64,000 bases of DNA from Nitrospirota bacterium (GTDB lineage Bacteria > Nitrospirota > 9FT-COMBO-42-15 > HDB-SIOI813). Made by a program: the position numbers and the translations under genes. The stretch is from NCBI GenBank assembly GCA_016212215.1, contig JACRGV010000131.1, positions 655 to 64,654 on the forward strand. The letters are read 5' to 3'. Shown piece by piece: positions 9,359 to 60,869 of the stretch. The first letter of the stretch is position 1. Each line of letters opens with the position of its first letter. Under the pieces are notes generated by a model that was not told the origin of the DNA, searched no databases, and was given only the letters and a program-made list of their open reading frames with translations.

Positions 9359-10069
9359 ATGTCAAAAAATAATGCTATGGCCTCCAAAAAAGAATTTTTA
9401 AAATCATTATCTATCTTTTCTACACTCACTGATGCTGAAATATTCAAGCTATCAGATATTTCAGATGAGTTCACGTATAAAAATGGCGAATACATATTTT
9501 ACGAAGGGGACTCTCCTGACTGGCTTTGTATAGTTAAAGAGGGTAATGTAAAGGTTTTAAAACAACAGGAGGAAGGGAAAGAGACTATACTCAGGATTTT
9601 CAAACTGGGAGAGATATTCGGTGCAATGCCTGTCTTTGACAGACGGCCTTATCCGGCATCTTCAATCTCAATGGGGCAAACCGCCATATTAAAAATATAT
9701 TACACCGATTGCCTTGAATTCTTCGGTAAGAGACCTGACATAACCATTAAGCTTATTGGAGATATCGGTAAGATGCAGAGAGAGTTTGTTGACAAGTTCA
9801 ATGTATCATTAACAACCCGTGTAGAACATAGGATAGCCAGTACCTTAATGAACCTTGCAAGTAAAGTCAATGTGGAAGGCAGGCAGAATATTGAATTACA
9901 TCTTACCCGAAAAGATATTGCGAGCATGGTAGGAACAACGATAGAGACAACAATAAGAATAATGAGCCGGTTCCAGAAAGATGGGATAATTGAAAGCAAG
10001 AAAGGATATATCACGATATTGAAGCCGGATATGCTTAGTAAGTTAGCAGGAGATATTGAAGATGAATAA
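9359..10069 (+). CDS. Crp/Fnr family transcriptional regulator
   Basis: N-terminal cNMP-binding-type beta-roll and a C-terminal HTH (TRKDIASMVGTTIETTIRIMSRF). There is no N-terminal FNR-type Cys cluster. Confidence 0.85.
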   Translation: MSKNNAMASKKEFLKSLSIFSTLTDAEIFKLSDISDEFTYKNGEYIFYEGDSPDWLCIVKEGNVKVLKQQEEGKETILRIFKLGEIFGAMPVFDRRPYPASSISMGQTAILKIYYTDCLEFFGKRPDITIKLIGDIGKMQREFVDKFNVSLTTRVEHRIASTLMNLASKVNVEGRQNIELHLTRKDIASMVGTTIETTIRIMSRFQKDGIIESKKGYITILKPDMLSKLAGDIEDE

Positions 10070-10082
10070 TCGTGAGCGGGGT

Positions 10083-10189
10083 GTTCACAAAGGTGCATGA
10101 AAATCAGCGGGACAAGAATGTCCCGCCTATCCTCATAGAAATGGATAGGCGGGGTTTTCTTACCCCGCCGGAGGTATTTTCGGATGAAC
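10083..10189 (+). repeat. Family A repeat, copy A1
   Basis: GTTCACAAAGG..GAAAATCAGCGGGACAAGAATGTCCCGCCTATCC..GGATAGGCGGGGTTTTCTTACCCCGCCGGAGG..TTTTCGGATGAAC. Confidence 0.9.
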
Positions 10190-17707: not shown

Positions 17708-18602
17708 TATTGATTTAAATTTAATGGGGAGAACAGCCCTTGTTACAGGCGGGAGTAATGAGATCAGTGGTGCGATTTGTCGAGTCATGGCATCTGCCGG
17801 CGCATCAGTAATTATTCATTACAACAAAAACAGGGAAATTGCAGAGCAGACATGCAAAGATATAATCTCAAGCGGCGGCACAGCAGTTACTTTCAGTACA
17901 GATTTTTCTGATGAAGATTCCATAGACGCTCTTTTCAGCTTTATCAAAGAACGATTCAACCACCTCGACATCCTTGTTAATAATGCCCACCTTCCTCTTA
18001 AAAGAACCTTCCTCAAAGATATAACATGGGAAGAACATCAGGAGCAGATAGACGTTATGGTGAAGGGGACATTCTACTGTTCTAAGAAAGCTATAGAGAT
18101 GATGCGGGAGCCGGTCATGAGCGAGGCGCTCACAAAGGACAATGAAAATGAGTGGGACAAGAATGTCCCACCTATCCTTGATATATATCCGGATAGGCGG
18201 GGTTTTCTTACCCCGCCGGAGGAATTTTCGGGTAAACAGCGTAAAGGCGGCTCAATCATCAACATCCTTACATCACAGACAGAGCATCCTGTAAGCGGCT
18301 ACAGCAGTTATGTAACAGCCGCATCTGCATTAACGGGTTTTACAAGAAATCTTGCTGTAGAGGCGGGATGTATGGGGGTAAGGGTCAACATGATTGCACC
18401 TAACTTTGTCCTTACCTCACATACACCCAACGCACCTCAACACGTCCACGATGCAATTATAAAATCCACACCCCTTGGCCGCCTTGCAACACCGAATGAC
18501 ATAGCAAAGGTTGTCTTATTTTTTGCCTCAGACCTGTCAGAATTTATAACCGGATGCTATTTTGTTGTTGATGGGGGATACGGTTTATCGGGAAGGCGTT
18601 AG
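17685..18602 (+). CDS. Divergent SDR-family protein carrying an in-frame family A repeat
   Basis: TALVTGGS.., NNAH and GGSIINILTS motifs. The expected YxxxK reads YVTAA, so the Lys is absent. About 36 codons (18129-18237) derive from the repeat. Confidence 0.65.
   Translation: MMTSGLPDIDLNLMGRTALVTGGSNEISGAICRVMASAGASVIIHYNKNREIAEQTCKDIISSGGTAVTFSTDFSDEDSIDALFSFIKERFNHLDILVNNAHLPLKRTFLKDITWEEHQEQIDVMVKGTFYCSKKAIEMMREPVMSEALTKDNENEWDKNVPPILDIYPDRRGFLTPPEEFSGKQRKGGSIINILTSQTEHPVSGYSSYVTAASALTGFTRNLAVEAGCMGVRVNMIAPNFVLTSHTPNAPQHVHDAIIKSTPLGRLATPNDIAKVVLFFASDLSEFITGCYFVVDGGYGLSGRR
18129..18237 (+). repeat. Family A repeat, copy A2, inside the SDR CDS
   Basis: CTCACAAAGGACAATGAAAATGAGTGGGACAAGAATGTCCCACCTATCC..GGATAGGCGGGGTTTTCTTACCCCGCCGGAGGAATTTTCGGGTAAAC. 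Confidence 0.9.
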
Positions 18603-18603: not shown

Positions 18604-18775
18604 AGTTCACTCGAAAATCCCCTCCGGCGGGGTAAGAAAACCCCGCCTATCCATGTGTAAATTTGGGGGAACCCGCCTATCCATGCCTAACCTGAGGATA
18701 GGCGGGACTTTCTTGTCCCGCTGATTTTCATGGCCCTTTGTGAACCCTCGGTTCATGGGAGTTCACCCGAAAATA
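18604..18775 (-). repeat. Family A repeat, copy A3 (reverse orientation, with one arm duplicated)
   Basis: This is the reverse complement of the A consensus, with two GGATAGGCGGG arms. Confidence 0.9.
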
Positions 18776-23479: not shown

Positions 23480-23590
23480 TTATACGGCCTTTCGGGAATT
23501 TTTCTCTGTTATCTTACATCTTGCCTCTTGCTTCTGTCTTTCCTTCATCTCTTGACACTGATAAAGTTTTCTTCTAATCTCATCACTCAG

Positions 23591-24084: not shown

Positions 24085-24212
24085 CAGCAATTCCCTGTGA
24101 TGTATCAGGCAACTGGCCTTACAGCGGGGTTAGAAAACCCATCCTATAGCGATAGGCGGGACATTCTTGTCCCGCATTCACAAGGGAGAAATATTGTTAC
24201 CAAGAATTGCTG
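24085..24212. mobile_element. 128-bp MITE-like element with 9-bp TIRs and a 9-bp target-site duplication
   Basis: TIRs CAGCAATTC / GAATTGCTG. Flanking direct repeats TTGAAATAT lie at 24076-24084 and 24213-24221. The interior is a family A-like core. Confidence 0.7.
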
Positions 24213-25868: not shown

Positions 25869-26723
25869 ATGTTTAGATTTCCTGCTGTAAACAAAAAGAT
25901 ATTAGCCGCCTTTTTTCTGGTGATAGGGATATTTGTCCTGTTATCCCCTGAAATAAAAGGCGCACCTCGTTTTTACTTTTTTGAGAGACCTTTTGCCTTT
26001 TCCATCAACGTAGTCCAGTCGGGTTTCACGTCAATATTTAATAGTATATCTTCAGTCTGGTCCGGTTACATTTCACTTACAAATGTGAATAAAGATAACA
26101 AGAGACTTCTTGAAGAAAATAAAAGACTCCGTAATGAACAAATAGTTATGCTGGAAAAGGCCCTTGCCGCTGACAGGCTTTTGGAGCTTCTGAGGCTTAA
26201 AGATACGATAAAAAAGGAATATGTTATTGCAGGTATAACGGCTAAAGACCCCGCAAGCTGGTCGAGTGTGGTAGTAATAAATAAAGGTGAGCGTGACGGA
26301 TTAAGGCCGGGCATGGGGGTGATAAATGAAGACGGGGTTGTGGGCAGGGTTATAAAGACGACACCCTCGTACTCAAGGGTGCTCCTGATTTCTGACAGGA
26401 ACAGTTCAGTCGCCGGTCTGATCCAGCGGACAAGAGATGAGGGTATTGTAGCAGGGGCAGGCGGTAGTCCATTAAGACTTAATTATATAACAATAACTTC
26501 TGATGTACTGAAAGGGGATATTATCCTGACATCCGGTACCGACAGCGTTTTTCCTGAGGGGATAGTTATAGGAAGCATCAGCAAGATAGAGACCCCCAAA
26601 AATGCCATGTTTCATTCAATAGAAGTCCTGCCGGGAGTGAACTTATCAAAAGTTAGAGAAGTAATGGTATTAAAAACCCCGCCGGCGCCGGAGATTGAAA
26701 GGATGTTAAAAGACAGTGATTAG
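25869..26723 (+). CDS. mreC: Rod shape-determining protein MreC
   Basis: N-terminal TM, a coiled coil, then beta-barrel domains (GMGVINEDGVVGRV). It sits after mreB. Confidence 0.85.
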   Translation: MFRFPAVNKKILAAFFLVIGIFVLLSPEIKGAPRFYFFERPFAFSINVVQSGFTSIFNSISSVWSGYISLTNVNKDNKRLLEENKRLRNEQIVMLEKALAADRLLELLRLKDTIKKEYVIAGITAKDPASWSSVVVINKGERDGLRPGMGVINEDGVVGRVIKTTPSYSRVLLISDRNSSVAGLIQRTRDEGIVAGAGGSPLRLNYITITSDVLKGDIILTSGTDSVFPEGIVIGSISKIETPKNAMFHSIEVLPGVNLSKVREVMVLKTPPAPEIERMLKDSD

Positions 26724-26784
26724 TGGTTAGTGAATAGTGATGAGTGAGAAGCGAGAAGTAAGAGGCAAGAAGTAAGAAATAAGA
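26710..26784 (+). repeat. Heptamer-periodic tract starting with AAGACAG
   Basis: AAGACAGTGATTAGTGGTTAGTGAATAGTGATGAGTGAGAAGCGAGAAGTAAGAGGCAAGAAGTAAG. It contains the mreC stop. Confidence 0.8.
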
Positions 26785-26787: not shown

Positions 26788-26853
26788 CGGACGAAAATTC
26801 CCTCCCCTTCAAGGGGAGGGTTAGGGTGGGGATGGGGTTGATTTTCGGATGAA
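26788..26853 (+). repeat. Family B hairpin repeat ending in GATTTTCGGATGAA
   Basis: CGGACGAAAATTCCCTCCCCTTCAAGGGGAGGGTTAGGGTGGGGATGGGGTTGATTTTCGGATGAA. It contains the mreD ATG. Confidence 0.9.
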
Positions 26854-27352: not shown

Positions 27353-29148
27353 CAGATTTTCAGGATAAGAACAGGGGGTTACAACAGAGAATAAAATATC
27401 TCAGGACATTCATTATCCTTTTATTTACTATTGTCCTTTTTCGTGGGTGGCACATGCAGATTATCAAAGGGTCATATTATAGAAAACTCTCAGAAGATAA
27501 CCGTGTCAGGACAGTTATAATGCCTCCTCTCAGGGGCATTATATATGACCGCAATGGAGAGATACTGGCGAAGAATGTCCCTTCATTTGATGCAGGCATT
27601 GTTATTGCCGACACAAAAAATCTGAACAGGACTATAAGAAAATTATCACCCCTAATTCATCTTTCGTTTGAAGAGATTAAAGAGAGGATAAAGTATGCAA
27701 AAAATTATGACCCTTTCTCTCCTATATTAATAAAAGAAGACATATCAATAAGGGAGGTTGCCCTGATTGAGTCTCAGGGTTGGAACCTGCCTGGGGTTGT
27801 AACAATCATTGAAGGAAGGCGTGAGTATCCCAATAATGTCCTTGCAGCCCATCTGTTAGGTTATGTAGGAGAGGTTTCGCAGTCTCAGCTCAGGGAAGTT
27901 GATTACTCATCTGAACTGCCCGGAAGAATAATCGGGCAGAATGGTATAGAGAAGGAATACGATAGCCTGCTCAGGGGCAGGGTCGGCAGAAAAAACATTG
28001 AAGTAGACGCATCCGGCCATGAACGTCAGATACTGGATATTTCTGAACCAATAGCCGGGGATAACATAGTTTTGGCAATAGATATAGGATTACAACGTGC
28101 TGCTGAAGATGCACTTGGGGACAGGAGAGGGGCCGTAGTTGTACTGGATTCAGATACAGGAGAGGTGCTTGCATTGGCCAGTCACCCGGCGTATGACCCT
28201 AATGTCTTGTCAAGGAGGCTACTGCCTAGTGTATGGAAAAAGATTGCTGAAGACCCTGGTCATCCATTAAACAACAGGGCAATACAGGGTACTTATCCTC
28301 CAGGCTCAGTCTTTAAAATACTCATGGCTACCGCAGGTCTTGAGGGGGGGTATATTGACCCGGGCGGAAGAATAGCATGCAGCGGCGGGATGCAGTTCGG
28401 TAACAGGTTTTACAGGGACTGGACATCAGTCGGCCACGGGTCAGTTGATCTGCATAAGGCGATTACACAGTCCTGTGATGTATATTTTTATCAGCTTGGG
28501 AACCGTATGCAGATTGATACAATTGCAAATTATGCAATGCAATTCGGTCTTGGAGAGCCTACAGGGATTGATCTCCCTTCTGAAAAGAAAGGTCTTGTCC
28601 CCTCCACACAATGGAAACTTAATGCCAGAAAGGAACGCTGGTATGCCGGGGAGACTTTATCAGTAGCCATTGGACAGGGGTATCTTTCAGTGACCCCTTT
28701 ACAACAGGCTGTAATGGTAAACACAGTGGTCAATTCCGGTTCATTAAAAAGGCCGAGGGTGCTTAAAGGCATAATCTCTGATAAGGAGAAAAAGACTTAT
28801 GAATTTTCATCTGTTGAGGTACGTAAGATTGATATGAAGGAGTCTACCCTTAAAAATATAAAGAGCGCCTTACACGGGGTTGTGAATGAACCCGGGGGCA
28901 CAGGAGGGGCTGCCAGAAGTTATCTGATTGATGTTGGAGGTAAGACAGGAACGGCACAGGCTGTTGGGAGGCAGTCCGTCACCGGTCTGAATGACCATGC
29001 ATGGTTTGCCGCATTTGCACCCGTTGATAAACCAAAGATAACCGTTTCTGTGCTTGTGGAACACGGCGGACACGGCGGCAGCGCTGCCGCACCGGTGGCT
29101 AAGAAGATAATTGAGGAATATTTTAAGACAGTGAATAGTGATGAGTGA
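27349..29148 (+). CDS. mrdA: Penicillin-binding protein 2 (elongasome transpeptidase)
   Basis: SVFK (SxxK) and KTGTA motifs, with a dimerisation domain. The start is chosen at MTDFQDKNRG. Confidence 0.9.
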   Translation: MTDFQDKNRGLQQRIKYLRTFIILLFTIVLFRGWHMQIIKGSYYRKLSEDNRVRTVIMPPLRGIIYDRNGEILAKNVPSFDAGIVIADTKNLNRTIRKLSPLIHLSFEEIKERIKYAKNYDPFSPILIKEDISIREVALIESQGWNLPGVVTIIEGRREYPNNVLAAHLLGYVGEVSQSQLREVDYSSELPGRIIGQNGIEKEYDSLLRGRVGRKNIEVDASGHERQILDISEPIAGDNIVLAIDIGLQRAAEDALGDRRGAVVVLDSDTGEVLALASHPAYDPNVLSRRLLPSVWKKIAEDPGHPLNNRAIQGTYPPGSVFKILMATAGLEGGYIDPGGRIACSGGMQFGNRFYRDWTSVGHGSVDLHKAITQSCDVYFYQLGNRMQIDTIANYAMQFGLGEPTGIDLPSEKKGLVPSTQWKLNARKERWYAGETLSVAIGQGYLSVTPLQQAVMVNTVVNSGSLKRPRVLKGIISDKEKKTYEFSSVEVRKIDMKESTLKNIKSALHGVVNEPGGTGGAARSYLIDVGGKTGTAQAVGRQSVTGLNDHAWFAAFAPVDKPKITVSVLVEHGGHGGSAAAPVAKKIIEEYFKTVNSDE

Positions 29149-29182
29149 ATAGTGAATAGTAAGAAGAAGCAAGAGGTAAGAT
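29125..29182 (+). repeat. Heptamer-periodic tract starting with AAGACAG
   Basis: AAGACAGTGAATAGTGATGAGTGAATAGTGAATAGTAAGAAGAAGCAAGAGGTAAG. It encodes the last 7 codons and the stop of mrdA. Confidence 0.8.
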
Positions 29183-29184: not shown

Positions 29185-29319
29185 CGGATGAATATTCCCT
29201 CCCCCTTGACGGAGGAGGGGCAGGGTGGGGGTGAACTCTGAAAATTCCCTCCCCTTCAAGGGGAGGGTGCTAAGTTCATCCCCCCTCCCTTGACGGGAGG
29301 GGGTTAGGGGGAGGGTGTG
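29185..29319 (+). repeat. Family B hairpin repeats (three units)
   Basis: Three CCCTCCCC..GGGGAGGG-type hairpins. The 3' end, GGGAGGGTGTGC, contains the rodA GTG. Confidence 0.9.
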
Positions 29320-30429
29320 CTTAAAAAAAATCCATTAGCTTTAATTGACTGGAAGGCGCTGGCAATAATTGCTGTAATACTTTTTATAGGGGTATTAACT
29401 ATATTCAGTGCTACTTACAACAGTTCAGGCGGGGGGATACCTTTATATTATAAACAGGCAGGTTGGATTGCTATAGGGATGGTATTCTTTTTTGCCGGGG
29501 CAACCATAGATTACCAGACTATTGCAAAATATGCATATCCATTATATGCAGTATCACTGTTATTACTGGTTCTCGTAATGGTTATTGGGAGAAGTGGTTT
29601 CGGTGCACAGAGGTGGCTGTCTGTAGGAGGCTTCTCATTCCAGCCATCAGAGCTTGCAAAACTGGCGACTGTACTTGCAATAACAAGATATTTTTCCGAT
29701 TATCCTGCCAGGTATGGTTATACTGTTAAAGAGTTATTTATACCCGGGGTTGTTATTGCTATTCCGGTACTGCTTGTATTGAAACAGCCTGACCTTGGAA
29801 CAGCCCTTGTAATAACATTTGTATCATTGGGGCTTATATATCTTGTAAGGATACGTTCAAAGTTTTTTGGTCTTTCAATGCTGATAGGGATAATGACATT
29901 TCCCTTCCTCTGGCAGTTATTCTGGGAGAGTCTAAAAGGGTATCAAAAGATACGTCTTATGACATTCGTAAATCCAATGGCTGATCCTAGGGGCACAGGC
30001 TATCATATCATTCAATCCAAGATAGCTGTCGGCTCCGGTGGATTCATGGGAAAGGGGCTGTTTGAGAGCACACAGAGTCACCTGAATTTCCTTCCTGCGC
30101 GGCACACAGACTTCATTTTTTCAGTATTTTCTGAAGAGTGGGGATTCATAGGTCTTGCAGTGCTCATGTTGCTCTACCTTGGTCTGATAACATGGGGATT
30201 GGATACAGCAATAAAGTCCAGAGACAGGCTTGGGATGTTGATGGGCAGCAGTCTGGTATGTCTCTTTACATGCTACTGTCTTATAAACATCGGGATGACC
30301 CTTGGGATAGTCCCTGTAGTGGGAATACCACTGCCCCTTATGAGCTACGGCGGCACCTCTTTAATTACTACCTTGTTTTCTCTCGGTATATTATTTAATA
30401 TAAAGAAAAAAAGGTACCTGTTTTCGTAA
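29317..30429 (+). CDS. rodA: Rod shape-determining protein RodA (SEDS family)
   Basis: About 10 TM segments with QPSELAK and FIFSV..EE.GF motifs. GTG is the only in-frame start after the TAG at 29305. Confidence 0.85.
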   Translation: MLKKNPLALIDWKALAIIAVILFIGVLTIFSATYNSSGGGIPLYYKQAGWIAIGMVFFFAGATIDYQTIAKYAYPLYAVSLLLLVLVMVIGRSGFGAQRWLSVGGFSFQPSELAKLATVLAITRYFSDYPARYGYTVKELFIPGVVIAIPVLLVLKQPDLGTALVITFVSLGLIYLVRIRSKFFGLSMLIGIMTFPFLWQLFWESLKGYQKIRLMTFVNPMADPRGTGYHIIQSKIAVGSGGFMGKGLFESTQSHLNFLPARHTDFIFSVFSEEWGFIGLAVLMLLYLGLITWGLDTAIKSRDRLGMLMGSSLVCLFTCYCLINIGMTLGIVPVVGIPLPLMSYGGTSLITTLFSLGILFNIKKKRYLFS

Positions 30430-30885: not shown

Positions 30886-30964
30886 AAGAAAGTGATTAGT
30901 GATGAGTGATGAGTAAAAACACATTCCCCGTTACTAACTACTAATTTCTAATTACTAATTAACA
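30886..30964 (+). repeat. Heptamer-periodic tracts (GTGATKA units, then TTACTAA units)
   Basis: AGTGATTAGTGATGAGTGATGAGTAA ... TTACTAACTACTAATTTCTAATTACTAATTAAC. Confidence 0.75.
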
Positions 30965-32788
30965 ATGTCTTATCAGGTTCTCGCAAGAAAGTGGCGTCCA
31001 AATACATTTCAGGAACTTACCGGCCAGGGGCATGTATCAAAGACAATTGAAAATGCTATAAAGTCTGAACGTATTGCCCATGCCTATTTATTCTCAGGGG
31101 TCAGAGGTGTCGGGAAGACTACTGTGGCAAGGATACTTGCCAAGTCTTTAAACTGTGCTGAAGGCCCGACCGCAATCCCATGTATGAAGTGTCAATCCTG
31201 TCATGAGATTACCGGAGGTTATGCAGTAGACGTAGTAGAGATAGATGGTGCATCTCATACAGGTGTGGATAATATAAGGGAGCTTCAGGAGAATGCTCAG
31301 TATGCCCCGCTCAGAGGCCGCTACAAGATATACATAATTGATGAAGTCCACATGCTGTCTACCTCAGCATTTAATGCCCTGCTGAAGATACTGGAAGAAC
31401 CGCCTCCACACATTGTCTTTATTTTTGCCACAACAGAGCCTCATAAGATTCCTGCTACAATACACTCAAGGTGCCAGACCTACCAGTTCCGCAGGATTAG
31501 TTATAAGGAGATAATGGAGAGGCTTCAATTCATCCTCCATGAGGAGGGTATCAAGGCCGGTGAATCCGCACTCTCTATTGTGGCAAGGGCATCTGACGGA
31601 AGCATGAGGGATGCACTCAGCCTTCTTGATCAGGTGATTGCCTATACCGGCGAAAATATCACTGATGAGGATGTGGCGTGGATACTTGGTACGGCGGAGC
31701 ATCTTACAGTCCATCTTATACAACACATTCTTAACAAAGATTCAGCAGGGGCATTGAACATATTAAAAGAGTTATCAGACGGCGGCTATGATATCAAGCA
31801 GTTCCTCCTTAATATTGTTGAACATATAAGAAATCTTACGATGATAAAACTTGGGGTTGGAGGGGATGTGATAGACCTCCCGTCAGAAGAAATTGCAGCG
31901 GCTTCAAAATTGGCAGAAGGTGTTCCTATTGAAGATTTCCAGAGGCTGTTCGGGATATTTTCATCCGCCCTTGAAGAGATGCGCTGGTTCCCATATCCGA
32001 GATTCTCACTTGAGATGGCTGTGATAAAGGCATCAAACATGAGGCCGGTTGTCCCTGTAGATGACCTGCTTGCAAAATTACAGGATATAGAACATCGTAT
32101 GGTATCCGGTGTGCCGCCAATGGGTCTAAAGGGTGGTGAAAATCAGCGGGACAAGAATGTCCCGCCTATCCTCAATTTAGGCGTGGATAGGCGAGGTGTT
32201 CCAACCACGCCGGAGGGATTTTCGGGTAAAGCATCTATGCGTGTACCACTCACAAAGGACGATGAAGATTCCCTCCCCTTCAAGGGGAGGGTTAGGGTGG
32301 GGATGGGGTTATCTTCTGATGAAAACAAGCAGGAAACATCAGATAATCAGGCCATGCCTATTAAAGATGAAAGTGATTTAAAATCAGTATGGAAGAGCAT
32401 AGTGGGAAGGATATTAGAGCGAAAGCCGAGCCTTGGCTCTTATATTGAGCAGAGTATACCGCTTGGAATTTCTGAAGGGATACTGACTATCGGTTTTAAC
32501 GGCGGCGCTTCTGTGTTCATAACCTTATTAGACAGGAAGGATAGTAAAGACTATATCCTTGAAGTTGTTAAAGGTTATATGCAGGGAGTCAGCGGGATAA
32601 GATTTACTACAGCGTCAGATAAAACAGAGAACAACCCTGCACCGGCGTATGAAGAGTATGTTGCCACAGCACATGAAAAACAACAGGAAGAGGTGGATGA
32701 TGCATTCTCAGACCCTATTGTTCAGGAGGCAATTGATATTTTAGGCGGAGAACTTGTAGAATTAAGGAATAAAAAGCAGATTAATTAA
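30965..32788 (+). CDS. dnaX: DNA polymerase III subunit gamma/tau, with in-frame family A and B repeats in the post-domain-III linker
   Basis: GVRGVGKTT Walker A, Zn module CMKCQSC, DEVHML, SRCQ. Repeat-derived codons occupy 32126-32310. Confidence 0.9.
   Translation: MSYQVLARKWRPNTFQELTGQGHVSKTIENAIKSERIAHAYLFSGVRGVGKTTVARILAKSLNCAEGPTAIPCMKCQSCHEITGGYAVDVVEIDGASHTGVDNIRELQENAQYAPLRGRYKIYIIDEVHMLSTSAFNALLKILEEPPPHIVFIFATTEPHKIPATIHSRCQTYQFRRISYKEIMERLQFILHEEGIKAGESALSIVARASDGSMRDALSLLDQVIAYTGENITDEDVAWILGTAEHLTVHLIQHILNKDSAGALNILKELSDGGYDIKQFLLNIVEHIRNLTMIKLGVGGDVIDLPSEEIAAASKLAEGVPIEDFQRLFGIFSSALEEMRWFPYPRFSLEMAVIKASNMRPVVPVDDLLAKLQDIEHRMVSGVPPMGLKGGENQRDKNVPPILNLGVDRRGVPTTPEGFSGKASMRVPLTKDDEDSLPFKGRVRVGMGLSSDENKQETSDNQAMPIKDESDLKSVWKSIVGRILERKPSLGSYIEQSIPLGISEGILTIGFNGGASVFITLLDRKDSKDYILEVVKGYMQGVSGIRFTTASDKTENNPAPAYEEYVATAHEKQQEEVDDAFSDPIVQEAIDILGGELVELRNKKQIN
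32126..32229 (+). repeat. Family A repeat, copy A5, inside dnaX
   Basis: GGTGAAAATCAGCGGGACAAGAATGTCCCGCCTATCC..GGATAGGCGAGGTGTTCCAACCACGCCGGAGGGATTTTCGGGTAAA. Confidence 0.9.
32261..32310 (+). repeat. Family B repeat inside dnaX
   Basis: GATGAAGATTCCCTCCCCTTCAAGGGGAGGGTTAGGGTGGGGATGGGGTT. From ATTCCC onward it is identical to the intergenic copy at 26797-26839. Confidence 0.9.
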
Positions 32789-32790: not shown

Positions 32791-32839
32791 GAGAAGTTAG
32801 AAGCAAGAAGTTAGAAGTCAGAAGCAAGAAATAAGAATA
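32791..32839 (+). repeat. Heptamer-periodic tract (7 NAGAAGY units in register)
   Basis: GAGAAGT TAGAAGC AAGAAGT TAGAAGT CAGAAGC AAGAAAT AAGAATA. Confidence 0.85.
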
Positions 32840-32859: not shown

Positions 32860-33183
32860 ATGTCAAAGAAGATGTTCGGTGATATTATGAAGCAGGCCCA
32901 GAAGATGCAGGAACAGCTTGCAAAGATTCAGGAGGAGGCGGCTAATAAAACAGTAGAAGCATCATCAGGCGGCGGAATGGTGTCAGTTACTGCAAACGGC
33001 CGTCAGGAGGTGCTCTCAATAAAAATTGAAAAGGATGTAGTAAATCCTGATGACGTGGATATGCTTCAGGACCTTATTCTCGCCGCAACTAATGAGGCAT
33101 TGAGAAAATCAAAGGACATGATGGCAGAAGAGATGAAGGGGATGACAGGCGGGATGGGGATGAATATCCCTGGCCTGTTTTAA
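32860..33183 (+). CDS. ybaB: YbaB/EbfC nucleoid-associated protein
   Basis: [11 protein letters not shown]...[11 protein letters not shown]....I...V.P.D.EMLQDLI. It is in the conserved dnaX-ybaB-recR position. Confidence 0.9.
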
Positions 33184-33188
33184 GAAAA

Positions 33189-33326
33189 GGATTTTCGGGT
33201 GAACTCATATGAGCCGAGGGTTCACAAAGGGCCATGAAAATCAGCGGGACAAGAAAGTCCCGCCTATCCTCGTAGAAATGGATAGGCGGGGTTTTCTTAC
33301 CCCGCCGTAGAGGATTTCCGGATGAA
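33189..33326 (+). repeat. Family A repeat, copy A6 (full length)
   Basis: GGATTTTCGGGTGAAC..GTTCACAAAGGGCCATGAAAATCAGCGGGAC..CCCGCCGTAGAGGATTTCCGGATGAA. It contains the recR ATG. Confidence 0.9.
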
Positions 33327-33909
33327 AGACAATTTATTTAATCATTTAATTGAGCAATTGAAAAAATTTCCAGGCGTTGGCCAGAAGACTGCTCAGCGGC
33401 TTGCTTTCTTCCTATTAAAAGCAAATGCGGATGATGCAAAGGCGATAGCAGAGGCTATTATTGCAGTTAAGGATAATATCCGATTCTGTTCAGTATGTAA
33501 TAATATTACCGAAGAAGACCCGTGCCGTATTTGCAGTGATTCTAACAGGGACAGGAAAAAGATACTTGTTGTGAAAGAGCCAAGCACCCTTTACACAATC
33601 GAACGTACAGGCGGTTACAAAGGCTTATACCATGTCATGTTAGGTACAATATCCCCTTTGGATGGGATAGGCCCGGATGATATAAAGATTGCCGGATTAT
33701 TAAAGAGAGTTGAACAGGATGCAATCGAAGAGGTAATACTTGCCCTTGATCCTGACATGGCAGGAGAGGCGACCGCCATGTATCTTACACGCCTGCTGAA
33801 ACCTTTTGAGGTACACGTAACCCGTATTGCCTACGGTATACCGGTCGGCAGTGATATTGAATATGCCGATGAACTCACTCTTGTTAAATCCCTTGAAGGC
33901 AGAAGGTGA
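33322..33909 (+). CDS. recR: Recombination protein RecR
   Basis: LKKFPGVGQKTAQRLAFFLL HhH motif, C4 zinc finger CSVC..CRIC, and a Toprim domain. Confidence 0.9.
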   Translation: MKDNLFNHLIEQLKKFPGVGQKTAQRLAFFLLKANADDAKAIAEAIIAVKDNIRFCSVCNNITEEDPCRICSDSNRDRKKILVVKEPSTLYTIERTGGYKGLYHVMLGTISPLDGIGPDDIKIAGLLKRVEQDAIEEVILALDPDMAGEATAMYLTRLLKPFEVHVTRIAYGIPVGSDIEYADELTLVKSLEGRR

Positions 33910-36999: not shown

Positions 37000-37411
37000 C
37001 GGCTATCCTTTTGTATGGTGTTTTATGCAAAACAAATTCTACCAAAAGGAGAGCAATTTTTCATCAAAAAAATCCACTTAAGTTATAACTTTTGCAAGAG
37101 CCTAATCTTGTAACCAGCATTGCGGGAGAAGAAGAGTTCAGACCCTCTCTGTTTCCTGACCTGATTATCGCTCTCAAAGAAATCTGGAAGTAAAATTGAT
37201 ATTGGAGGATTTTGTTACCTTCATCCGTAACCCCCTCCTGAGCCACTCTAATCAACAAATTATTTATCTTTTTATACACTCTGATTTTATGGTAAAATTA
37301 GCCGTTTTTTTATTATGTAGCAAAATTGCAAGAAAGAAATATTCAAAAAGGGAGTGACATCTTTATAGTTGACTCCAGTGACCAGAATTGGAATGCCAGA
37401 GAGTGACGGGT

Positions 37412-38119
37412 ATGCCTTTAACGTTAGAGAAACTAAAAAAGCAGTTAGAAAGCATAAAGGCTATGGGTTTCATTAAAACTCGCAGATTACATGACACAGG
37501 CATTGGAAAAACTCTGGAGGATCTTTTAGGGATTAAAGAGAACAACTTTCAAATACCGGATGTCGGCGATGTTGAACTGAAGGCCAAGAGGATTGACTCC
37601 GGAAGTATGCTTACAATTGCAACAAAGTCACCGGAACCCAAGGGGATTAATAAATTTTTGTTTGAAAAATATAAATATACCGACAACGAAGGTCGTTTCA
37701 ACCTCCATTCTACTGTTTACGGGTCTCGGGAAAATCCTCAAACATTCAGGGTTGTTTTTGAATATGATCGCCTTGTTTTAAGAAATAAATTAAATATAGA
37801 GGCTTACTGGCCAATTTCTATCTTTGATAGTGTTTTAAAGGCAAAGTCAAATATAATTTTATTAGTTTACGCTGAAACTAAAGGCAAGAGAAAAACTGCA
37901 GAAGAACAATTCCACTTTGTAGAAGCATATTTGTTATCAAACCTCAATTTAAATAAATTTCAATCTGCTGTAGAGAATGACAAATTAAAGATTGATATTA
38001 GGATAGGTGCATATAGAAGCGGTAAAAATAAAGGCAGATACCACGACCATGGGACAGCTTTTAGAATAAATAAAAAGGATTTTCTTCATCTTTATGATAA
38101 TTTCAATCAAATTATTTAA
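37412..38119 (+). CDS. BcnI/MvaI-family type II restriction endonuclease
   Basis: TGIGKTLEDLLGIKENN..PDVGDVELKAKR, LLVYAETKG...EEQFHFVEAYLL and HDHGTAFRI....F..LY match my recollection of BcnI/MvaI. Confidence 0.7.
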   Translation: MPLTLEKLKKQLESIKAMGFIKTRRLHDTGIGKTLEDLLGIKENNFQIPDVGDVELKAKRIDSGSMLTIATKSPEPKGINKFLFEKYKYTDNEGRFNLHSTVYGSRENPQTFRVVFEYDRLVLRNKLNIEAYWPISIFDSVLKAKSNIILLVYAETKGKRKTAEEQFHFVEAYLLSNLNLNKFQSAVENDKLKIDIRIGAYRSGKNKGRYHDHGTAFRINKKDFLHLYDNFNQII

Positions 38120-39981
38120 TCCTTTCTCAAAACAACAATACTCTCTTTATTCATTGTCTCTTCTAATGCTCCAACAATATTAGTCGGTGAATTTTTCATA
38201 GGCATTCTTTTGCCAGGAATATTTCTCACAAAAATATCTTCACAAGTAAATCCTATACTCTCACTCAATTCAGCAATAATAAAATCAGTAGGTATCCTTA
38301 CTTGCTTCACCATTCTATTACCAATTACAATGCAGAAATATTTTTTTGGTTTCAGTATCCTATGGGCTTGCCTTAAACAAGTGTTTAATCCGATATAAAA
38401 ACTTAATACCTCTTTAGCCCTCTTTTCATCTCTCTTTATAATTTTATCTAATGATTCTTTTAAATAATTAGAAAGTAAATGATGCTCTATAGTTTTAGTG
38501 GCTTTACCGCCGAGCAGCTCATTATCTAAACCGGAAGCCTTATTTGGGTCATCAAAAATATTAGCCCATTGTGCCGACAATCGTGAAAATTGACCATAAG
38601 CAACGGTAGTTCTGCTGTCTCCATAAGGGGGGGAGGTTAATATAAAATCAATTGAGTTATCTTTTATTTTATTATCTTTTGCAGAATCTCCATAAATTAT
38701 TTTTGTAAATACGTCTTTACCTGCTTCCTTATAAAAATCTGCCATTCCTTTTATGTTGAGTTCTGTTCTTTTTCTAAAAATTCCTAAAACATCAGGACAA
38801 TAGTTTTCCAATTTATCTCTGCTTATTCTCACAAGCTTAAATTCCCCACTCTTTGTGTTTGATGATAATCTGACACTTTCACTGAAAGGTATCATAAAAA
38901 AATTTCTTATATCTGAATTCTCTATTTTTAAAATAGCGTCTTTTATTTTGGCTAACTGTAGAATAACATCTTCCTTAAACCAGAAATCAATATTGTTAAA
39001 ATTAGGTTTATGTACTTCTTTCCCCTTTACTTTATCAATCTCTGAAAGCAATTTAAAATATGCTTTTGTAAGTAAAGAGGGATTTATCGGAGTTGTTTTA
39101 ACCCTTGCCAGCAAGATTGCTAATGGATTCAAATCTATCCCATAAGCATTTCTTCCTAACAGTTTACTTTCAACTAATGCTGTACCGGATCCACAGAATA
39201 TATCACAAATCGTATCTCCTTTTTGGCTATAAGTTTCTAATAGTCGGCGTGCAACTTGAGGAATGAACATTGCAGGATAGGTATGTATACCGTGAGTATA
39301 TTGCTTAGTATTTTCTCCCTTATAATCCCATGAATAATCTATTCTTCTAACATATTTTTCATCTTTTACTCTTTCTTTCTCGATTTGAGTTTCTAAATTT
39401 CTAATAATTTTTACGACAATCCCTCTTATCTCTACATCCTCTCTGTAGAAAGGAAATAGTGTAGGGTTTGCCGGTTGAAGTCTAATGCGGTCTCTTTCTC
39501 TATAAATTTTCTTAAGTGTTGCCTGATTATCATCAATAATTGCAACGACTGTTTGCCCGTTATCTGCAAATTCCTGTTTTCTGATAATGACAATATCCCC
39601 ATCAAAAATTCCTTCATCAATCATACTGTTGCCTTGTACTCTTAATGCATAATGTTTGCCGTGTGTTCCAACTTCGTCTTTTGAAATGGCAATGATTTCA
39701 TTAGGAGCTTCTATTGGTTCGATGGGTTGACCCGCTGCAATCGTCCCGACTAAAGAGACCTCAATAATTGATTTCTCTTTTACTGGAGATAAAGCTCTTG
39801 GTTGGTTATATTCTTTTTGTAAGTATCCGGATTCTTGTAATTTCTTTACATGATGATGAGCAGTTGAAACAGAAGATAGTTTAAGATGTTTTTTTATTTC
39901 CTCAAGAGATGGTGAAAGACCTTTCTTATTTCTAAAAGATGTTATAAAATCAAGGGCTTGTTTCTGTCGTTTTGTAAGCAT
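38116..39981 (-). CDS. LexA (HTH + S24 peptidase) fused to an amino-methyltransferase (SPPY, likely N4-cytosine or N6-adenine)
   Basis: aa 1-205 read MLTKRQKQALDFI.., the AAGQP cleavage-site motif, GNSM (Ser) and TLKK (Lys). aa 215-621 contain HTYPAMFIPQ, DIFCGSGT (motif I) and LTSPPYGD (motif IV). It is one uninterrupted ORF. Confidence 0.75.
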   Translation of the reverse strand: MLTKRQKQALDFITSFRNKKGLSPSLEEIKKHLKLSSVSTAHHHVKKLQESGYLQKEYNQPRALSPVKEKSIIEVSLVGTIAAGQPIEPIEAPNEIIAISKDEVGTHGKHYALRVQGNSMIDEGIFDGDIVIIRKQEFADNGQTVVAIIDDNQATLKKIYRERDRIRLQPANPTLFPFYREDVEIRGIVVKIIRNLETQIEKERVKDEKYVRRIDYSWDYKGENTKQYTHGIHTYPAMFIPQVARRLLETYSQKGDTICDIFCGSGTALVESKLLGRNAYGIDLNPLAILLARVKTTPINPSLLTKAYFKLLSEIDKVKGKEVHKPNFNNIDFWFKEDVILQLAKIKDAILKIENSDIRNFFMIPFSESVRLSSNTKSGEFKLVRISRDKLENYCPDVLGIFRKRTELNIKGMADFYKEAGKDVFTKIIYGDSAKDNKIKDNSIDFILTSPPYGDSRTTVAYGQFSRLSAQWANIFDDPNKASGLDNELLGGKATKTIEHHLLSNYLKESLDKIIKRDEKRAKEVLSFYIGLNTCLRQAHRILKPKKYFCIVIGNRMVKQVRIPTDFIIAELSESIGFTCEDIFVRNIPGKRMPMKNSPTNIVGALEETMNKESIVVLRKD

Positions 39982-40078: not shown

Positions 40079-43000
40079 TTAATCCCCCCTCCCTGTAGGA
40101 TGGCAATTCAAACACTGGCTGTTGGTGTAATTCTTTTTGTGTTCATTTCCGTGGCAGGTTGTGCATCCGCCGCTGTTTTTATATGCGACTGCAGGATGAC
40201 AGGCAGCGCAGTCAGCGGGATTTGTTCCCCTGTGATTGAGGGGGAAGGTGGTTGACGGGTGAGTGAAGGTCCATGTGGTTGTAGACTTATGACAGGTTTC
40301 ACAGGTGGTCCAATTATTCGCAGTATGGTCTGCCGGTTTCGCAGGTGTACTTTTCGTTGCGTGACATGTTGAGCATCCGGATTTTACTGCTGAATGGGTG
40401 AATGTCCATGCTGTTGTAGACTTATGACAATCTTCACAGGTGGTCCAGTTATTTGTTGTGTGACTTGTGGGTTTCGCAGGTGTACTGTAACTTGTGTGAC
40501 ATACGGAACATCCTGATGTTGATATTGAATGGCTGAATGTCCATGCAGTTGTGGACTTGTGGCAATTCTCACAAGTGGTCCAGTTGTTCGTTGTGTGGTC
40601 TCCAGGTTTCTTAGGTGTACTGTAACTTGTGTGACAGGTAGAACAGCCTGTCTTTGCAGTCGGGTGAGTGAATGACCATGATGCCCCTTGTGTGAAGGTA
40701 TGACAACTCCCGCATTTTGTCCAGTTGTTTGCAGGATGGCTCGAAGGTTTCACTGGATTGCTGTATGTAAGATGGCAAGTGGAACAATCAGTTATTGCAG
40801 AAGGGTGCGTAAAAGCCCATGCCGGATATTTGTGGCAGGTTTCGCATGTTGTCCATGTATTTGCAGTATGGCTTGCCGGCTTCTGAGGATTACTATAACT
40901 TGAATGACACGCGGCGCATCCTGTTGTTACAGATGTATGTTTACGCGAACCCCACGATACTATGGATGTATGGCATGTCTCACATGTATCAGGGTATGCG
41001 GCCGGATTTGCTGTATGGCTGAGCGGCTTTGCTGAAAGATGACAGTTCGAGCAGTTGGATGTCGTCCCCGTTATATTGATATGTTTGAAACTCCACGAAG
41101 CGGCTGACACATTATGACACTGAGTGCAGTCCTGACTGTATGCCCTGAGAAGATGATTGGGTGCTGAGTAGTATGTGGAGAGATGGCAATTAACACAGAC
41201 AGATGATGTGCCTCTGTACTGCCGATTCTTGTGACACTCCTGACACTCTGCATCTCTATGTTTGCCTGAAAGCGGGAATCCCGTATCATTATGCCTGAAT
41301 CCCACAGCCTGCCATGAATTCTGGCTGTGACATTTGGAACATTCAATACTGCCGAACTGGTTCAGGTGCGGGTCTGTGTGGCACTGGTTACAGTACCGGT
41401 TTACCTTTTTATAGTTGTCTTTTGACTTGTGACAATAATTACAGGGCACATCATTGTGAAGCCCTTTCAACTCAAATCCGGTTCTTTTTTTATGGTCAAA
41501 CTTCCTCGCCTCCCAGTCAAACTGCGTATGGCATGAACTGCACTCTTCCTTAAACTCCCCCTTGTGTATGTCCTTATGGCAGTCAACGCATCGCTCTGCC
41601 TTTGTCTTATACCGCTTCTCCTTATGGCATTTCTCACATTCCGTATCCTTGTGTTTACCTATCAATGGAAACTTTGTCTGAAGGTTATGATTCAGGGTCG
41701 TCTTCTTCCAGTCCTCTGTTGTGTGACACTTCTTGCAGTTCTTACCAAGTTCTTCCTTGTGCACATCGTCTTTTTTATGACAGGTAAGACACTCCTGTTC
41801 AATCGGCCTATATTTTCCGTCTGCATGACACTTTTCACAATCTGTCTTCAGATGTTTCCCATCCAGCTTATAACCCTTATATTCCGGTGCATTGTGTTCA
41901 AACAGTATGGACTTCCAATCCTTTGTTACGTGACATGACTCACAGGTCTTATCTGCAAATTGTTTCTTGTGCGGATCAGTGTGACAGTCTGCTGAGTCGC
42001 AGGTCTTGTATTTAAGCGGTTTATAGCGTCCCTTTGTATGGCACTTTTCACACTTTACTTCTATATGTTTTCCTTCCATCTTGTATCCCTTGTATGCCGT
42101 TGCATTGTGGTCAAATGATGTTGTCTGCCATCCCTTTGTTGTATGACATGACTCACATGTCTTTCCTTCAAACTGTTTTTTATGCGGATCAGTGTGACAG
42201 TCTGCTGAATTGCATGTCTTGAAATTAAGCGGCTTATAGCGGCCTTTAGTATGGCACTTTTCACAATCAACCTTAAGGTGCTTGTCTTCGAGCTTATATC
42301 CTTTATATGCCGGTGCATTATGGTCAAACAGTACAGACTTCCAATCCATGGTTGTATGGCAGGACTCACATGTCTTTCCTTCAAACTGTTTTTTATGCGG
42401 GTCATTATGACAGTCTGATGAGTTGCATGTCTTATAATTAAGCGGTTTAAAGCGGCCTTTAGTATGGCACTTTTCACATTCAACTTTCAGATGTTTTCCA
42501 TCGAGCTTATATCCCTTGTACTCCGGGGCGTTGTGGTCAAACAGGATTGTCTTCCACCCTTTTGTAGTGTGGCATGATTCGCAGGTCTTTCCTGCAAGCT
42601 GTTTTTTGTGCGGGTCAGTGTGGCAGTCCGCTGAATTGCAGGTCTTGTAATTAAGAGGTTTATAGCGGCCTTTTGTATGGCACTTTGCACACTTTACTTC
42701 AATATGCTTGTCGGCGAGGATATACTTTGAATTTGTGTTGTGATTGAATTTTTTAATATCCTTCCAGCCCTTGATGTTGTGACAACGGCTGCAATCTTTA
42801 TCCAACTGACTATTGTGGTAATCCTTGTGACAAGACAGGCAATCCTGTTTCAGCCCTGTATAAACCCCGCTCTTTTTGTGACACTTATTACAACTCGTCT
42901 CAGCATGTTTATCTTCAAGCGGATAATCTGTAAGTTTATGGTCAAACTTCTTTTCATCAAGGGAGATCATCTGGTAGCCTCTTCCCTTGTGGTCGCTGTG

Positions 43001-43267
43001 GCAGGAGATGCAGGGGTCTGTGTATCTGGCATGGACGCCCTGTTTGTTCTTTATCTTAATCGCCAGTTTATCGTGACAATCAAGACAATTGCTGTCCGGA
43101 ACCCCGCCTCTCAGCTTATGACATTTTGTACAATTGGAAATGCCTTCGAATTTTGCATGAGGGGCCGCCAGCTTGCCGGGGCTTATGAGAGTCTCCATAC
43201 TGTCCTGAGCAAAGGAAGCTGACGAGATGAGGAGAAAACTTAGTAAGAAAAATATATATTTGTTCAT
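40079..43267 (-). CDS. Giant multiheme c-type cytochrome (cytochrome c3/c7-like repeats), secreted
   Basis: Signal peptide MNKYIFFLLSFLLISSASFA. My manual count is about 41 CxxCH plus 4 C-x4-CH (CNSADCH) motifs. There are internal tandem modules of about 71 aa and about 47 aa. Confidence 0.9.
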   Translation of the reverse strand: MNKYIFFLLSFLLISSASFAQDSMETLISPGKLAAPHAKFEGISNCTKCHKLRGGVPDSNCLDCHDKLAIKIKNKQGVHARYTDPCISCHSDHKGRGYQMISLDEKKFDHKLTDYPLEDKHAETSCNKCHKKSGVYTGLKQDCLSCHKDYHNSQLDKDCSRCHNIKGWKDIKKFNHNTNSKYILADKHIEVKCAKCHTKGRYKPLNYKTCNSADCHTDPHKKQLAGKTCESCHTTKGWKTILFDHNAPEYKGYKLDGKHLKVECEKCHTKGRFKPLNYKTCNSSDCHNDPHKKQFEGKTCESCHTTMDWKSVLFDHNAPAYKGYKLEDKHLKVDCEKCHTKGRYKPLNFKTCNSADCHTDPHKKQFEGKTCESCHTTKGWQTTSFDHNATAYKGYKMEGKHIEVKCEKCHTKGRYKPLKYKTCDSADCHTDPHKKQFADKTCESCHVTKDWKSILFEHNAPEYKGYKLDGKHLKTDCEKCHADGKYRPIEQECLTCHKKDDVHKEELGKNCKKCHTTEDWKKTTLNHNLQTKFPLIGKHKDTECEKCHKEKRYKTKAERCVDCHKDIHKGEFKEECSSCHTQFDWEARKFDHKKRTGFELKGLHNDVPCNYCHKSKDNYKKVNRYCNQCHTDPHLNQFGSIECSKCHSQNSWQAVGFRHNDTGFPLSGKHRDAECQECHKNRQYRGTSSVCVNCHLSTYYSAPNHLLRAYSQDCTQCHNVSAASWSFKHINITGTTSNCSNCHLSAKPLSHTANPAAYPDTCETCHTSIVSWGSRKHTSVTTGCAACHSSYSNPQKPASHTANTWTTCETCHKYPAWAFTHPSAITDCSTCHLTYSNPVKPSSHPANNWTKCGSCHTFTQGASWSFTHPTAKTGCSTCHTSYSTPKKPGDHTTNNWTTCENCHKSTTAWTFSHSISTSGCSVCHTSYSTPAKPTSHTTNNWTTCEDCHKSTTAWTFTHSAVKSGCSTCHATKSTPAKPADHTANNWTTCETCHKSTTTWTFTHPSTTFPLNHRGTNPADCAACHPAVAYKNSGGCTTCHGNEHKKNYTNSQCLNCHPTGRGD

Positions 43268-43401
43268 CCGAAAATCTCCTCCGGCGGGGTAAGAAAACCC
43301 CGCCTATCCAAATCAACGAGGATAGGCGGGACATTCCTGTCCCGCTGATTTTCATGGCCCTTTGTGAACCATGGTTCATGACGGTTCACCCGAAAATCTC
43401 C
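43262..43401 (-). repeat. Family A repeat, copy A7 (full length, reverse orientation)
   Basis: The reverse complement reads GGAGATTTTCGGGTGAAC..GTTCACAAAGGGCCATGAAAATCAGCGGGAC..CCGCCGGAGGAGATTTTCGGATGAAC. It contains the cytochrome ATG. Confidence 0.9.
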
Positions 43402-48410: not shown

Positions 48411-48456
48411 ATTTTGTATGTACGTTTAACCAACAAGCAGAAAGGAGAGTAGAACA

Positions 48457-60849: not shown

Positions 60850-60869
60850 CTGTGTCCTCCTTTCTAAAT

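Follow-up and report, generated by a model that had tools for sequence, protein, structure and literature searches.

The 64,000-nucleotide stretch of the Nitrospirota bacterium contig JACRGV010000131.1 (assembly GCA_016212215.1, positions 655 to 64,654; referred to here as the window) carries a structured repeat between ybaB and recR, at positions 33189..33326, that recurs elsewhere on the same stretch, and the question was what kind of element this repeat, termed Family A, represents. In an earlier note it had been described, from the letters of the sequence, as a three-hairpin element with direct-repeat ends, and its conservation had been ascribed either to recent spread or to selection on a structure. 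The present analysis indicates that Family A is most probably a non-autonomous mobile element of the repetitive extragenic palindromic (REP) type, similar to REP doublets forming hairpins (REPINs) and to bacterial interspersed mosaic elements (BIMEs), and enclosed in a lineage-specific palindromic shell. The observations that carry this assignment are the architecture of the unit, the compensatory changes in its stem, its identity with repeats bracketing transposase genes in other genomes, empty orthologous sites, the in-frame residence of copies in two genes, and the use of the ATG in the element's tail as a start codon.

The seven copies previously listed were all recovered at the same places, far above the chance level. 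The motif GCGGGAC-N6-GTCCCGC, with up to two mismatches allowed, was matched seven times in the window, exactly at these places, compared to an expectation of 0.01. The 27-mer GGATAGGCGGGGTTTTCTTACCCCGCC was found five times (none expected), and the tail sequence ATTTTCGGRTGAAC, again with up to two mismatches, 13 times (1.04 expected). A profile built by nhmmer from six of the copies returned the same seven places and no eighth. The window held 12 REP units in seven elements per 64 kb, two of the seven copies being intragenic.

The anatomy of the element was determined on the index copy, all modules of which are given on the forward strand. Its left repeat, GGATTTTCGGGTGAAC (33189..33204), starts 6 nt beyond the ybaB stop codon (33181-33183) and is a partial third arm that copies the distal part of the tail. 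It is followed by a loop, TCATATGAGCCGAGG (33205..33219), in which the ATG at 33209-33211 opens a mini open reading frame (ORF) in frame A, beginning MSRGFTKGHENQRD. The shell head, GTTCACAAAGGGCCATGAAAATCA (33220..33243), repeats the tail in inverted form and recurs in a second, G-rich repeat family. REP unit a (33244..33269) stands in inverted orientation and reads GCGGGAC-AAGAAA-GTCCCGC followed by CTATCC, while REP unit b (33280..33306) stands in forward orientation and reads GGATAGG followed by CGGGG-TTTTCTTA-CCCCG. The two are separated by a variable spacer between their tags (33270..33279), and the element closes with the shell tail, GTAGAGGATTTCCGGATGAA (33307..33326), which contains the Shine-Dalgarno-like (SD-like) AGAGGA and the ATG at 33322-33324, the start of recR.

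The module order given in the earlier note was correct; the interpretation of its three hairpins had to be revised. Hairpins 1 and 3 are one unit in opposite orientations, consisting of a GGATAGG tag, a GC stem of 7-8 bp and a TTCY loop, and both read GGATAGG, CGGGRYN, TTCY, NRYCCCG when followed from the tag. The second hairpin, CCTATCC-N8-12-GGATAGG, corresponds to two unit tags that lie face to face and pair, the variable spacer forming its loop. Among the units of the window and of 63 loci from public genomes (described below), the commonest forms were CGGGACA-ttct-TGTCCCG (33) and CGGGACA-ttcc-TGTCCCG (17), followed by CGGGGTT-ttct-AACCCCG (14) and CGGGACT-ttct-AGTCCCG (12). A short imperfect palindrome (20-40 nt) with a conserved tag at one foot of its stem is characteristic of REPs, GATAGG being a variant of the GTAG tag.

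Covariation was evaluated on 84 distinct units, which were chosen by tag, first four stem bases and loop, so that the 3' arm was left unconditioned. In the 8-pair stem, 95.8% of cells were paired, compared to 85.3% in shuffles and at most 45% with slid partners. Six of the eight stem pairs varied on both sides, and the covariation score was 0.343 versus 0.170, with 0 of 500 shuffles attaining it. Such compensatory changes had been proposed as a means of distinguishing an RNA-level from a DNA-level structure; they fit selection on the stems at either level alike, and the present data do not separate the two.

The description of the ends as direct and not inverted repeats was found to be incomplete. 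Direct repeats are present in three copies, but the head (GTTCAC-AAAGGGCCAT-GAAAATC) and the tail (GATTTTC-GG-ATGAAC; in general form GATTTTCGGATGAAC) are also inverted repeats of each other, which makes the stretch between and including them essentially an imperfect palindrome. The Family A core matched its own reverse complement in nhmmer reverse-strand self-hits (E ~1e-9). An extra partial arm is often present at the 5' side of the palindrome, and the 5' "direct repeat" is an additional copy of the distal tail. The whole arrangement, with unit a inverted, a spacer of 8-12 nt, unit b forward, and both enclosed by the inverted head and tail, is that of a REPIN. The predicted fold of the 140-nt copy, with a z of -4.5 as RNA and of -4.9 as DNA, also speaks for a palindromic doublet.

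The second family with this head and tail consists of G-rich hairpins, TTCCCTCCCCTTCAAGGGGAGGG-TTAGGGTGGGGATGGGG. Its copies were located on the forward strand at 3464-3510, 16481-16527, 26795-26841, 29194-29240, 29278-29324, 32266-32312, 46056-46102 and 48367-48413, and on the reverse strand at 12615-12656, 16429-16470 and 54257-54298. It also occurs in frame in dnaX.

The distribution of the unit beyond the window was determined by scanning one genome per species, 596 Gb in total, with the pattern GCGGGAC-N6-GTCCCGCCTATCC. The identical 26-nt unit was found in 63 stretches from 19 metagenome-assembled genomes (MAGs) labelled as at least seven phyla, taxonomy being taken from the record titles; for 20 specified bases in 596 Gb, about one match was estimated by chance. 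Seven of these MAGs were labelled Omnitrophota, three Dadabacteria and three Deltaproteobacteria/Thermodesulfobacteriota, and the remaining labels were Schekmanbacteria, Nitrospirae, Planctomycetia, Actinomycetota and unclassified. In the loci that were fetched, both unit variants formed doublets in either order.

When E. coli RayT (NC_000913) was used as a tblastn query, it matched ORFs adjoining these units. Three such ORFs of 167-170 aa, all from Omnitrophota, were bracketed by units (L025 6221-6733, L061 1760-2269 and L023 2156-2659), and a fourth, from a Deltaproteobacteria MAG (L055 7249-7710), had a unit doublet upstream only. A unit of the b type was found 15-20 nt upstream of the start codons, as GGATAGGCGGGGTTTTCTAACCCCGC in the three Omnitrophota ORFs. 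The unit a 26-mer was present at the 3' end of the same three genes, which end inside GCGGGACAAGAATGTCCCGCCTATCC and therefore share the C-terminus ..AGQECPAYP.

The unit-adjacent ORFs passed the Pfam model Y1_Tnp (PF01797) with 39-51 bits (cut-off 23) and the NCBIfam equivalog NF047646, 'REP-associated tyrosine transposase' (RAYT), with 106-114 bits (cut-off 80). Their HUH histidines and catalytic Tyr were invariant, and the proteins were 54-70% identical between the Omnitrophota and the Deltaproteobacteria MAG. A RAYT gene bracketed by inverted copies of a dispersed palindrome is the defining REP-RAYT arrangement. As the units bracket RAYT genes, Family A can be regarded as a REP doublet of the REPIN/BIME type, and the identity of its unit across phylum labels points to horizontal spread.

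Two further observations were made on related hairpins. The Deltaproteobacteria MAG NC_groundwater_453 carries a second RAYT (L026 4120-4548) bracketed by a different tagged hairpin, CACGAGCAAGACTCGTAGCCTACCC (L026 ~4060-4620; also L027), so that at least two REP-RAYT pairs of similar tag architecture (CCTACCC versus CCTATCC) are present in one genome. The IMG/VR contig IMGVR_UViG_3300032164_000019 (53.5 kb) carries a lone REP-like hairpin, GCGGGACTATAAAGTCCCGCCTATCC (L072 1999-2024). It was the one match in a scan of viral contigs, its loop is a different one, and the 14.7 kb read of this contig contained no RAYT; a viral vector is thus unsupported.

Evidence of mobility came from orthologous sites with and without the element. 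The ORF of a short-chain dehydrogenase/reductase (SDR), FabG-like, at 17685-18602 contains copy 2 (18098..18237, forward strand) as an in-frame insertion, and its Pfam match is split into aa 17-141 and 186-299. Its closest homologs, P0023 (261 aa) and P0024 (257 aa), which are 79-81% identical to it, lack exactly the 43 residues PVMSEALTKDNENEWDKNVPPILDIYPDRRGFLTPPEEFSGKQ that the copy adds at about residues 143-185. The DNA alignment gave clean junctions between filled and empty sites, the site being empty in L065 and L066. The empty site of L065, GAAATATTGAGTGAAC|AACGT, resembles the element's own repeat GAGATTTTCGGGTGAAC, and native sequence serves as the left repeat at this position. The sequences suggest that the element inserted immediately 3' of a target resembling its tail. 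In the homologs P0020-P0022, the codon that carries Family A in the window is occupied by the G-rich hairpin family instead.

In the AlphaFold model, the SDR insert (144-186) had a pLDDT below 50 and no secondary structure, and lay between the helix 115-141 and the strand 190-194, the Rossmann core being predicted at higher confidence. The insert is thus a disordered loop according to the model.

Comparable results were obtained at two other loci. The gap between ybaB and recR is 1 nt in the relatives L071, L073 and L074 and 138 nt in the window, where it is almost wholly occupied by the Family A element. Copy 5 (32094..32230, forward strand) lies in frame in dnaX (30965-32788), in a variable linker after DnaX domain III, and is absent from the closest ortholog, P0140. 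Copies 2 and 5 share a reading frame, (L)TK..ENQ/EWDKNVPPIL....DRRGF/V..TPPE.FSGK. Presence and absence at orthologous sites was observed between species only, for the SDR gene and the ybaB-recR gap. In about 30 kb of the relatives L070, L071, L073 and L074 (62-64% DnaX identity), no REP units, tails or G-rich hairpins were found, and the expansion was therefore lineage-specific and confined to a narrower lineage. Two scans of metagenome contigs with Family-A-specific patterns gave no further copies of the full architecture. Of the two explanations offered earlier for the density of the copies, mobile spread is thus supported by the empty sites and the RAYT bracketing, together with compensatory changes in the stems.

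The tail of the element, in the form GGAGGAGATTTTCGGATGAAC (GGAGG-N8-ATGAA), comprises an SD sequence, a spacer and an ATG. The tail ATG at 33322 is the recR start, and the RecR N-terminus obtained in this way aligns within one residue of its orthologs. On the reverse strand, the tail ATG at 43267 starts a 1062-aa multihaem cytochrome, the signal peptide MNKYIFFLLSFLLISSASFA following directly. Tails of the G-rich family start mreD (26849) and the N-terminal subunit of transketolase (16415, reverse strand). In full copies, frame A opens either at the left-repeat GTG or at the ATG in the loop and extends to the TGA of GGATGA, and this TGA overlaps the downstream ATG (ATGA).

The following mechanism would be consistent with these observations. 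By analogy with the REP/RAYT and IS200/IS605 systems, the genome would encode, outside the window, a single RAYT that recognises the tagged hairpins in single-stranded DNA, cuts and rejoins them, and copies the doublets in trans. Insertion would be favoured beside sequences resembling the element's own tail. Inserted copies would be transcribed with their host operons, their hairpins would probably modulate mRNA stability or translation, and the tail would give the downstream gene a ribosome-binding site and a start codon.

Several points weigh against the assignment of Family A to mobile REP doublets. No RAYT is present within the 64-kb window, and no cognate transposase was seen for this genome. 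The statement of the earlier note that the window lacks a transposase held true: Pfam scans of 62 of the 63 non-overlapping window ORFs of at least 70 aa detected none, and tblastn searches of the window gave no match when either E. coli RayT or the closest RAYT was the query. An IS608 TnpA query gave no significant tblastn match. The tag is GATAGG and not the canonical GTAG. The relatives with empty sites are only 62-83% identical at the protein level, so the timing and the direction of gain or loss rest on parsimony, and neither a transposition intermediate nor polymorphism within a population was seen.

The shell poses a further difficulty. Head and tail are absent from the loci of other phyla and are common to the unrelated G-rich hairpin family; being both restricted and shared, the shell may spread by another route or be a repeated target palindrome. 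It might travel with the doublet, or it might be such a target. An empty shell, with head joined to tail, was not found in the window.

An alternative explanation is that Family A is a structured cis-regulatory RNA, acting as a leader or intercistronic element, which is selected on RNA function and whose copies arose by duplication and not by transposition. Six of the seven copies are co-oriented with local transcription or located in operons, and the fold is strong. The 140-nt copy folds at -59.7 kcal/mol as RNA (z -4.5) and at -31.3 kcal/mol as DNA (z -4.9), the stem covaries, and the mini-ORF ends in ATGA on the downstream start. In the RNA fold of the copy at 43262-43401 (reverse strand), the direct repeats GGAGAUUUUC pair via G-U, close the whole element and bury the tail SD, and in the DNA fold the head pairs with the tail instead. 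According to these models, the alternative pairings could be relevant to the translation of the downstream gene, and the hiding of the SD would suit a regulatory RNA. However, a single element contains the units in both orientations, the same units flank transposase genes, the genes they serve are unrelated to one another, and in-frame copies in an enzyme and in DnaX make no regulatory sense. Covariation would be expected just as much if a RAYT recognised the stem as a hairpin of single-stranded DNA.

A regulatory RNA also found no counterpart in Rfam above noise. At the gathering thresholds of Rfam 15, the window contained only the signal recognition particle (SRP) RNA and three tRNAs, and a permissive scan of 33150-33360 gave sub-threshold miRNA-hairpin noise of at most 29.7 bits versus 97. 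When the unit sequence was looked for in the literature, nothing but chance matches in papers on other subjects came up, and the family was not described in the literature searched. The element belongs to a known class (REP/BIME/REPIN), which according to the earlier note would lessen its interest, but to no specific family of Rfam or the searched literature. Altogether, a cis-regulatory RNA was judged improbable.

Marginally less credible is a conventional miniature inverted-repeat transposable element (MITE), in which head and tail would be terminal inverted repeats (TIRs), the direct repeats target-site duplications, and the REP hairpins a passenger of an element mobilised by a DDE- or IS110-type transposase. 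Head and tail are indeed inverted repeats, one shell encloses two families with different cargo, and the SDR insertion adjoins a tail-like sequence. The direct repeats contradict this scheme. The two differ consistently between copies (GGGTGAAC versus GGATGAAC): each of the three full copies has a left repeat ending in GGGTGAAC, GGATGAA predominates on the right, and each side is more like the same side of other copies than like its own partner. Since these differences are side-specific and not copy-specific, the left and right repeats are not target-site duplications, a reading that was rejected for this reason. At 15-18 nt, and near-identical between loci, they are also far longer than DDE target duplications, and the window contained neither an empty shell nor a matching transposase.

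It is very unlikely that the copies are genuine small-protein genes encoding peptides of about 45 aa, MNRGFTKGHENQRDKNVPPIL..DRRGFLTPPEGIFG. Frame A is open in most copies, its ATG or GTG start is preceded by GGAG, and 17 such ORFs are annotated in one Nitrospirae MAG. Nevertheless, a profile of the frame-A peptide gave only 43 hits among 1.84 billion representative proteins, nearly all of them short ORFs over the same DNA repeat. The few real hosts of the peptide included the P-type ATPase P0273, in which the insert follows the DKTGT motif, and a response regulator that carries the repeat as a C-terminal fusion. A reading frame is open on the opposite strand as well, hairpin formation constrains the sequence, and stops occur in some copies, such as a TAG in the 33189 copy. 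In our view, the peptide is a by-product and not a gene.

The possibility that the copies are assembly or chimera artefacts is negligible: although the independent Logan contig L001 (3.2 kb) terminates exactly at a Family A element and assemblers evidently struggle here, the seven copies have unique flanks and individual substitutions, two of them keep long reading frames, and related copies occur in separately assembled MAGs, at least 17 of them, annotated as small ORFs or hypothetical proteins, in an NCBI Nitrospirae MAG (HZA08 ORFs).

Other candidates were rejected. An intrinsic terminator gave only a weak terminator-like match on the antisense strand, and no feature supported an integron attC site or fragments of a group II intron.

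The window (G+C 42%) carries ordinary chromosomal genes, including SRP RNA, dnaX-ybaB-recR, mreBCD-pbp2-rodA, transketolase and others, and its proteins have their best matches in Nitrospirae/Nitrospirota MAGs. The limits given here for copies 1 to 3, 5 and 6 (copy 6 being the index copy; copies 2, 5 and 6 on the forward strand) are those refined with nhmmer. Copy 1 (10056..10189, forward strand) has a degenerate left repeat that overlaps the end of a Crp-family gene (9359-10069), including its final codons and its stop, and its tail ATG opens a 21-codon ORF only. Copy 3 (18605..18775, reverse strand) is a long form with an extra degenerate REP unit and lies 2 nt past the SDR stop, on the opposite strand. 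Copy 4 (24085..24212, reverse strand) is a variant 6 nt past a tadA-like deaminase gene, with a tighter REP doublet (refined core 24118-24175) within a different outer inverted repeat, CAGCAATTC../..GGAATTGCTG. In copy 5, hairpin b is degraded, and a G-rich family copy follows it at 32251-32312. Copy 7 (43262..43401, reverse strand; refined limits 43262-43399) is a full form, the tail ATG of which (43267-43265) is the start of the multihaem cytochrome; its frame-A ORF opens at the GTG in the left repeat and closes with a TGA overlapping that ATG.

Other repeats were noted in the window. Heptanucleotide tandem arrays (AGAAGYN, AGTGAWK and others) fill many short intergenic spacers, at 3293-3415, 26715-26784, 29130-29160, 30891-30914, 32792-32837, 53032-53113 and 56143-56230 on the forward strand and at 15574-15604, 23501-23536, 50992-51032 and 54344-54379 in the reverse sense. 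They usually begin directly behind a stop codon and run in the direction of the genes. The spacer between dnaX and ybaB, 71 nt here versus 6-7 nt in relatives, consists of heptamers almost entirely. A third hairpin repeat, GGGAGGGTCAGAGCYTGCCCCCGAAGTA..ATCGGGGGGTG, has two intergenic copies, 89% alike, at 8647-8692 and 10756-10801. The multihaem cytochrome gene (40079-43267, reverse strand) contains tandem DNA repeats of 213 nt (4.1 copies, 41825-42706) and 135 nt (2.9 copies, 40264-40650).

A 189-nt direct repeat (58622-58810 and 60674-60862, 98% identical) brackets DUF3037, DUF1828/DUF1829 and HEPN genes; beside it lie a nucleotidyltransferase and a Type ISP restriction-modification enzyme of 1030 aa (60870-63962). 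The arrangement would fit an insertion or a duplication that took place recently within a defence island. In the ORF at 38116-39981 (reverse strand), a LexA-like DNA-binding domain and an S24 peptidase are fused to an N6/N4 DNA methylase. An MvaI/BcnI-type endonuclease (37388-38119) adjoins this fusion, which gives a restriction-modification system with a LexA-type module on its methylase.

Among known systems, Family A is close to the REP/BIME elements of E. coli and other Proteobacteria with their RAYT (TnpA_REP). It shares with them the tagged GC-rich palindrome, the alternating units with conserved linkers in a mosaic, a mostly intergenic position (in the window) with probable co-transcription with flanking genes, and, in other MAGs (three Omnitrophota with bracketing units, one Deltaproteobacteria with units upstream), the flanking of a Y1/HUH gene that passes the RAYT equivalog model. 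In contrast, its tag is GGATAGG and not GTAG, its sequence is unrelated to the Y and Z REPs of E. coli, its linkers (head and tail) carry an SD and an ATG used by genes, and its host is Nitrospirota-like, with the RAYT of the host not seen.

The REPIN-RAYT system of Pseudomonas fluorescens SBW25 likewise has two inverted REPs with a short spacer in a long hairpin (~100-140 nt), dispersed densely and presumably copied in trans by a single RAYT. Family A differs in the extra partial arm and in the shell shared with a second repeat family. Published descriptions of REPIN-RAYT systems (Bertels and Rainey, PMC3116915, PMC5581495) portray them as lineage-specific and as passed on mostly by vertical inheritance. 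Such inheritance with a single RAYT is a described tendency of REPINs and not a strict criterion, and the present unit does not follow it, since an identical 26-nt REP occurs across at least seven phylum labels with related RAYTs.

REP dimers within long conserved palindromes are known from Anabaena variabilis and Halothiobacillus neapolitanus (Di Nocera et al. 2013, PMC3733652), and intragenic REPs add 20-80 aa and are enriched in replication and repair genes (PMC3733652). The copy of Family A inside a replication gene, dnaX, is a case of such an intragenic REP. The families treated in that survey are GTAG- and CGTC-tagged and come from Proteobacteria, Cyanobacteria, Chloroflexi and the PVC group; it contains no GATAGG family, no Nitrospirota or Omnitrophota hosts and no donation of a start codon by the palindrome. 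Rickettsia palindromic elements (RPEs), which are CGTC-tagged (PMC3733652), resemble Family A as palindromes of 100-150 bp that insert in frame into functional genes, keep the frame open and add a surface peptide. Family A is not one of them, as tag, sequence and host are different and only the in-frame behaviour is alike.

The Correia elements of Neisseria and other MITEs are also small non-autonomous repeats that are transcribed with their neighbours and supply expression signals. Whereas Correia elements are characterised by true TIRs, by a TA target duplication and by promoter or IHF sites, Family A has REP hairpins, lacks a target duplication, and supplies an SD and an ATG instead of promoters. 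REPs, BIMEs, REPIN-RAYT systems, intragenic REPs and RPEs are thus known already, while the GATAGG tag, the identity of the unit across phylum labels together with related RAYTs, and a tail that supplies an SD and a start codon are less expected.

The last of these features leads to a proposal that is possible but doubtful, namely that the lineage-specific shell makes the REPIN "translation-transparent" and, combined with the cross-phylum unit, yields a horizontally travelling REP-RAYT system suited to compact genomes. Its basis is as follows. The 3' SD and start are used by four genes of the window (those for RecR, the cytochrome, MreD and the transketolase subunit); the left repeat or the loop supplies another SD and start, from which a mini-ORF of about 45 codons passes through all hairpins and, in full copies, ends at the TGA overlapping the ATG downstream; and the frame stays open inside genes (SDR, DnaX and the P-type ATPase of another metagenome). 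If this were true, the element could enter tightly coupled genes or coding loops without polar damage.

For annotation, the element has practical effects. It gives rise to spurious "hypothetical proteins" of 45-67 aa and to broken assemblies, lengthens real proteins (SDR, DnaX) and provides the true start codons of several genes. For the biology of the family, the finding carries REP/REPIN-RAYT systems, work on which has been almost confined to Proteobacteria, over to a Nitrospirota-like genome and to groundwater phyla without cultured members. That one REP unit recurs unchanged, with related RAYTs, under different phylum labels sits uneasily with a strictly vertical view of these systems. If the tail and the mini-ORF preserve translational coupling, Family A would be a selfish element that minimises its cost in gene-dense genomes.

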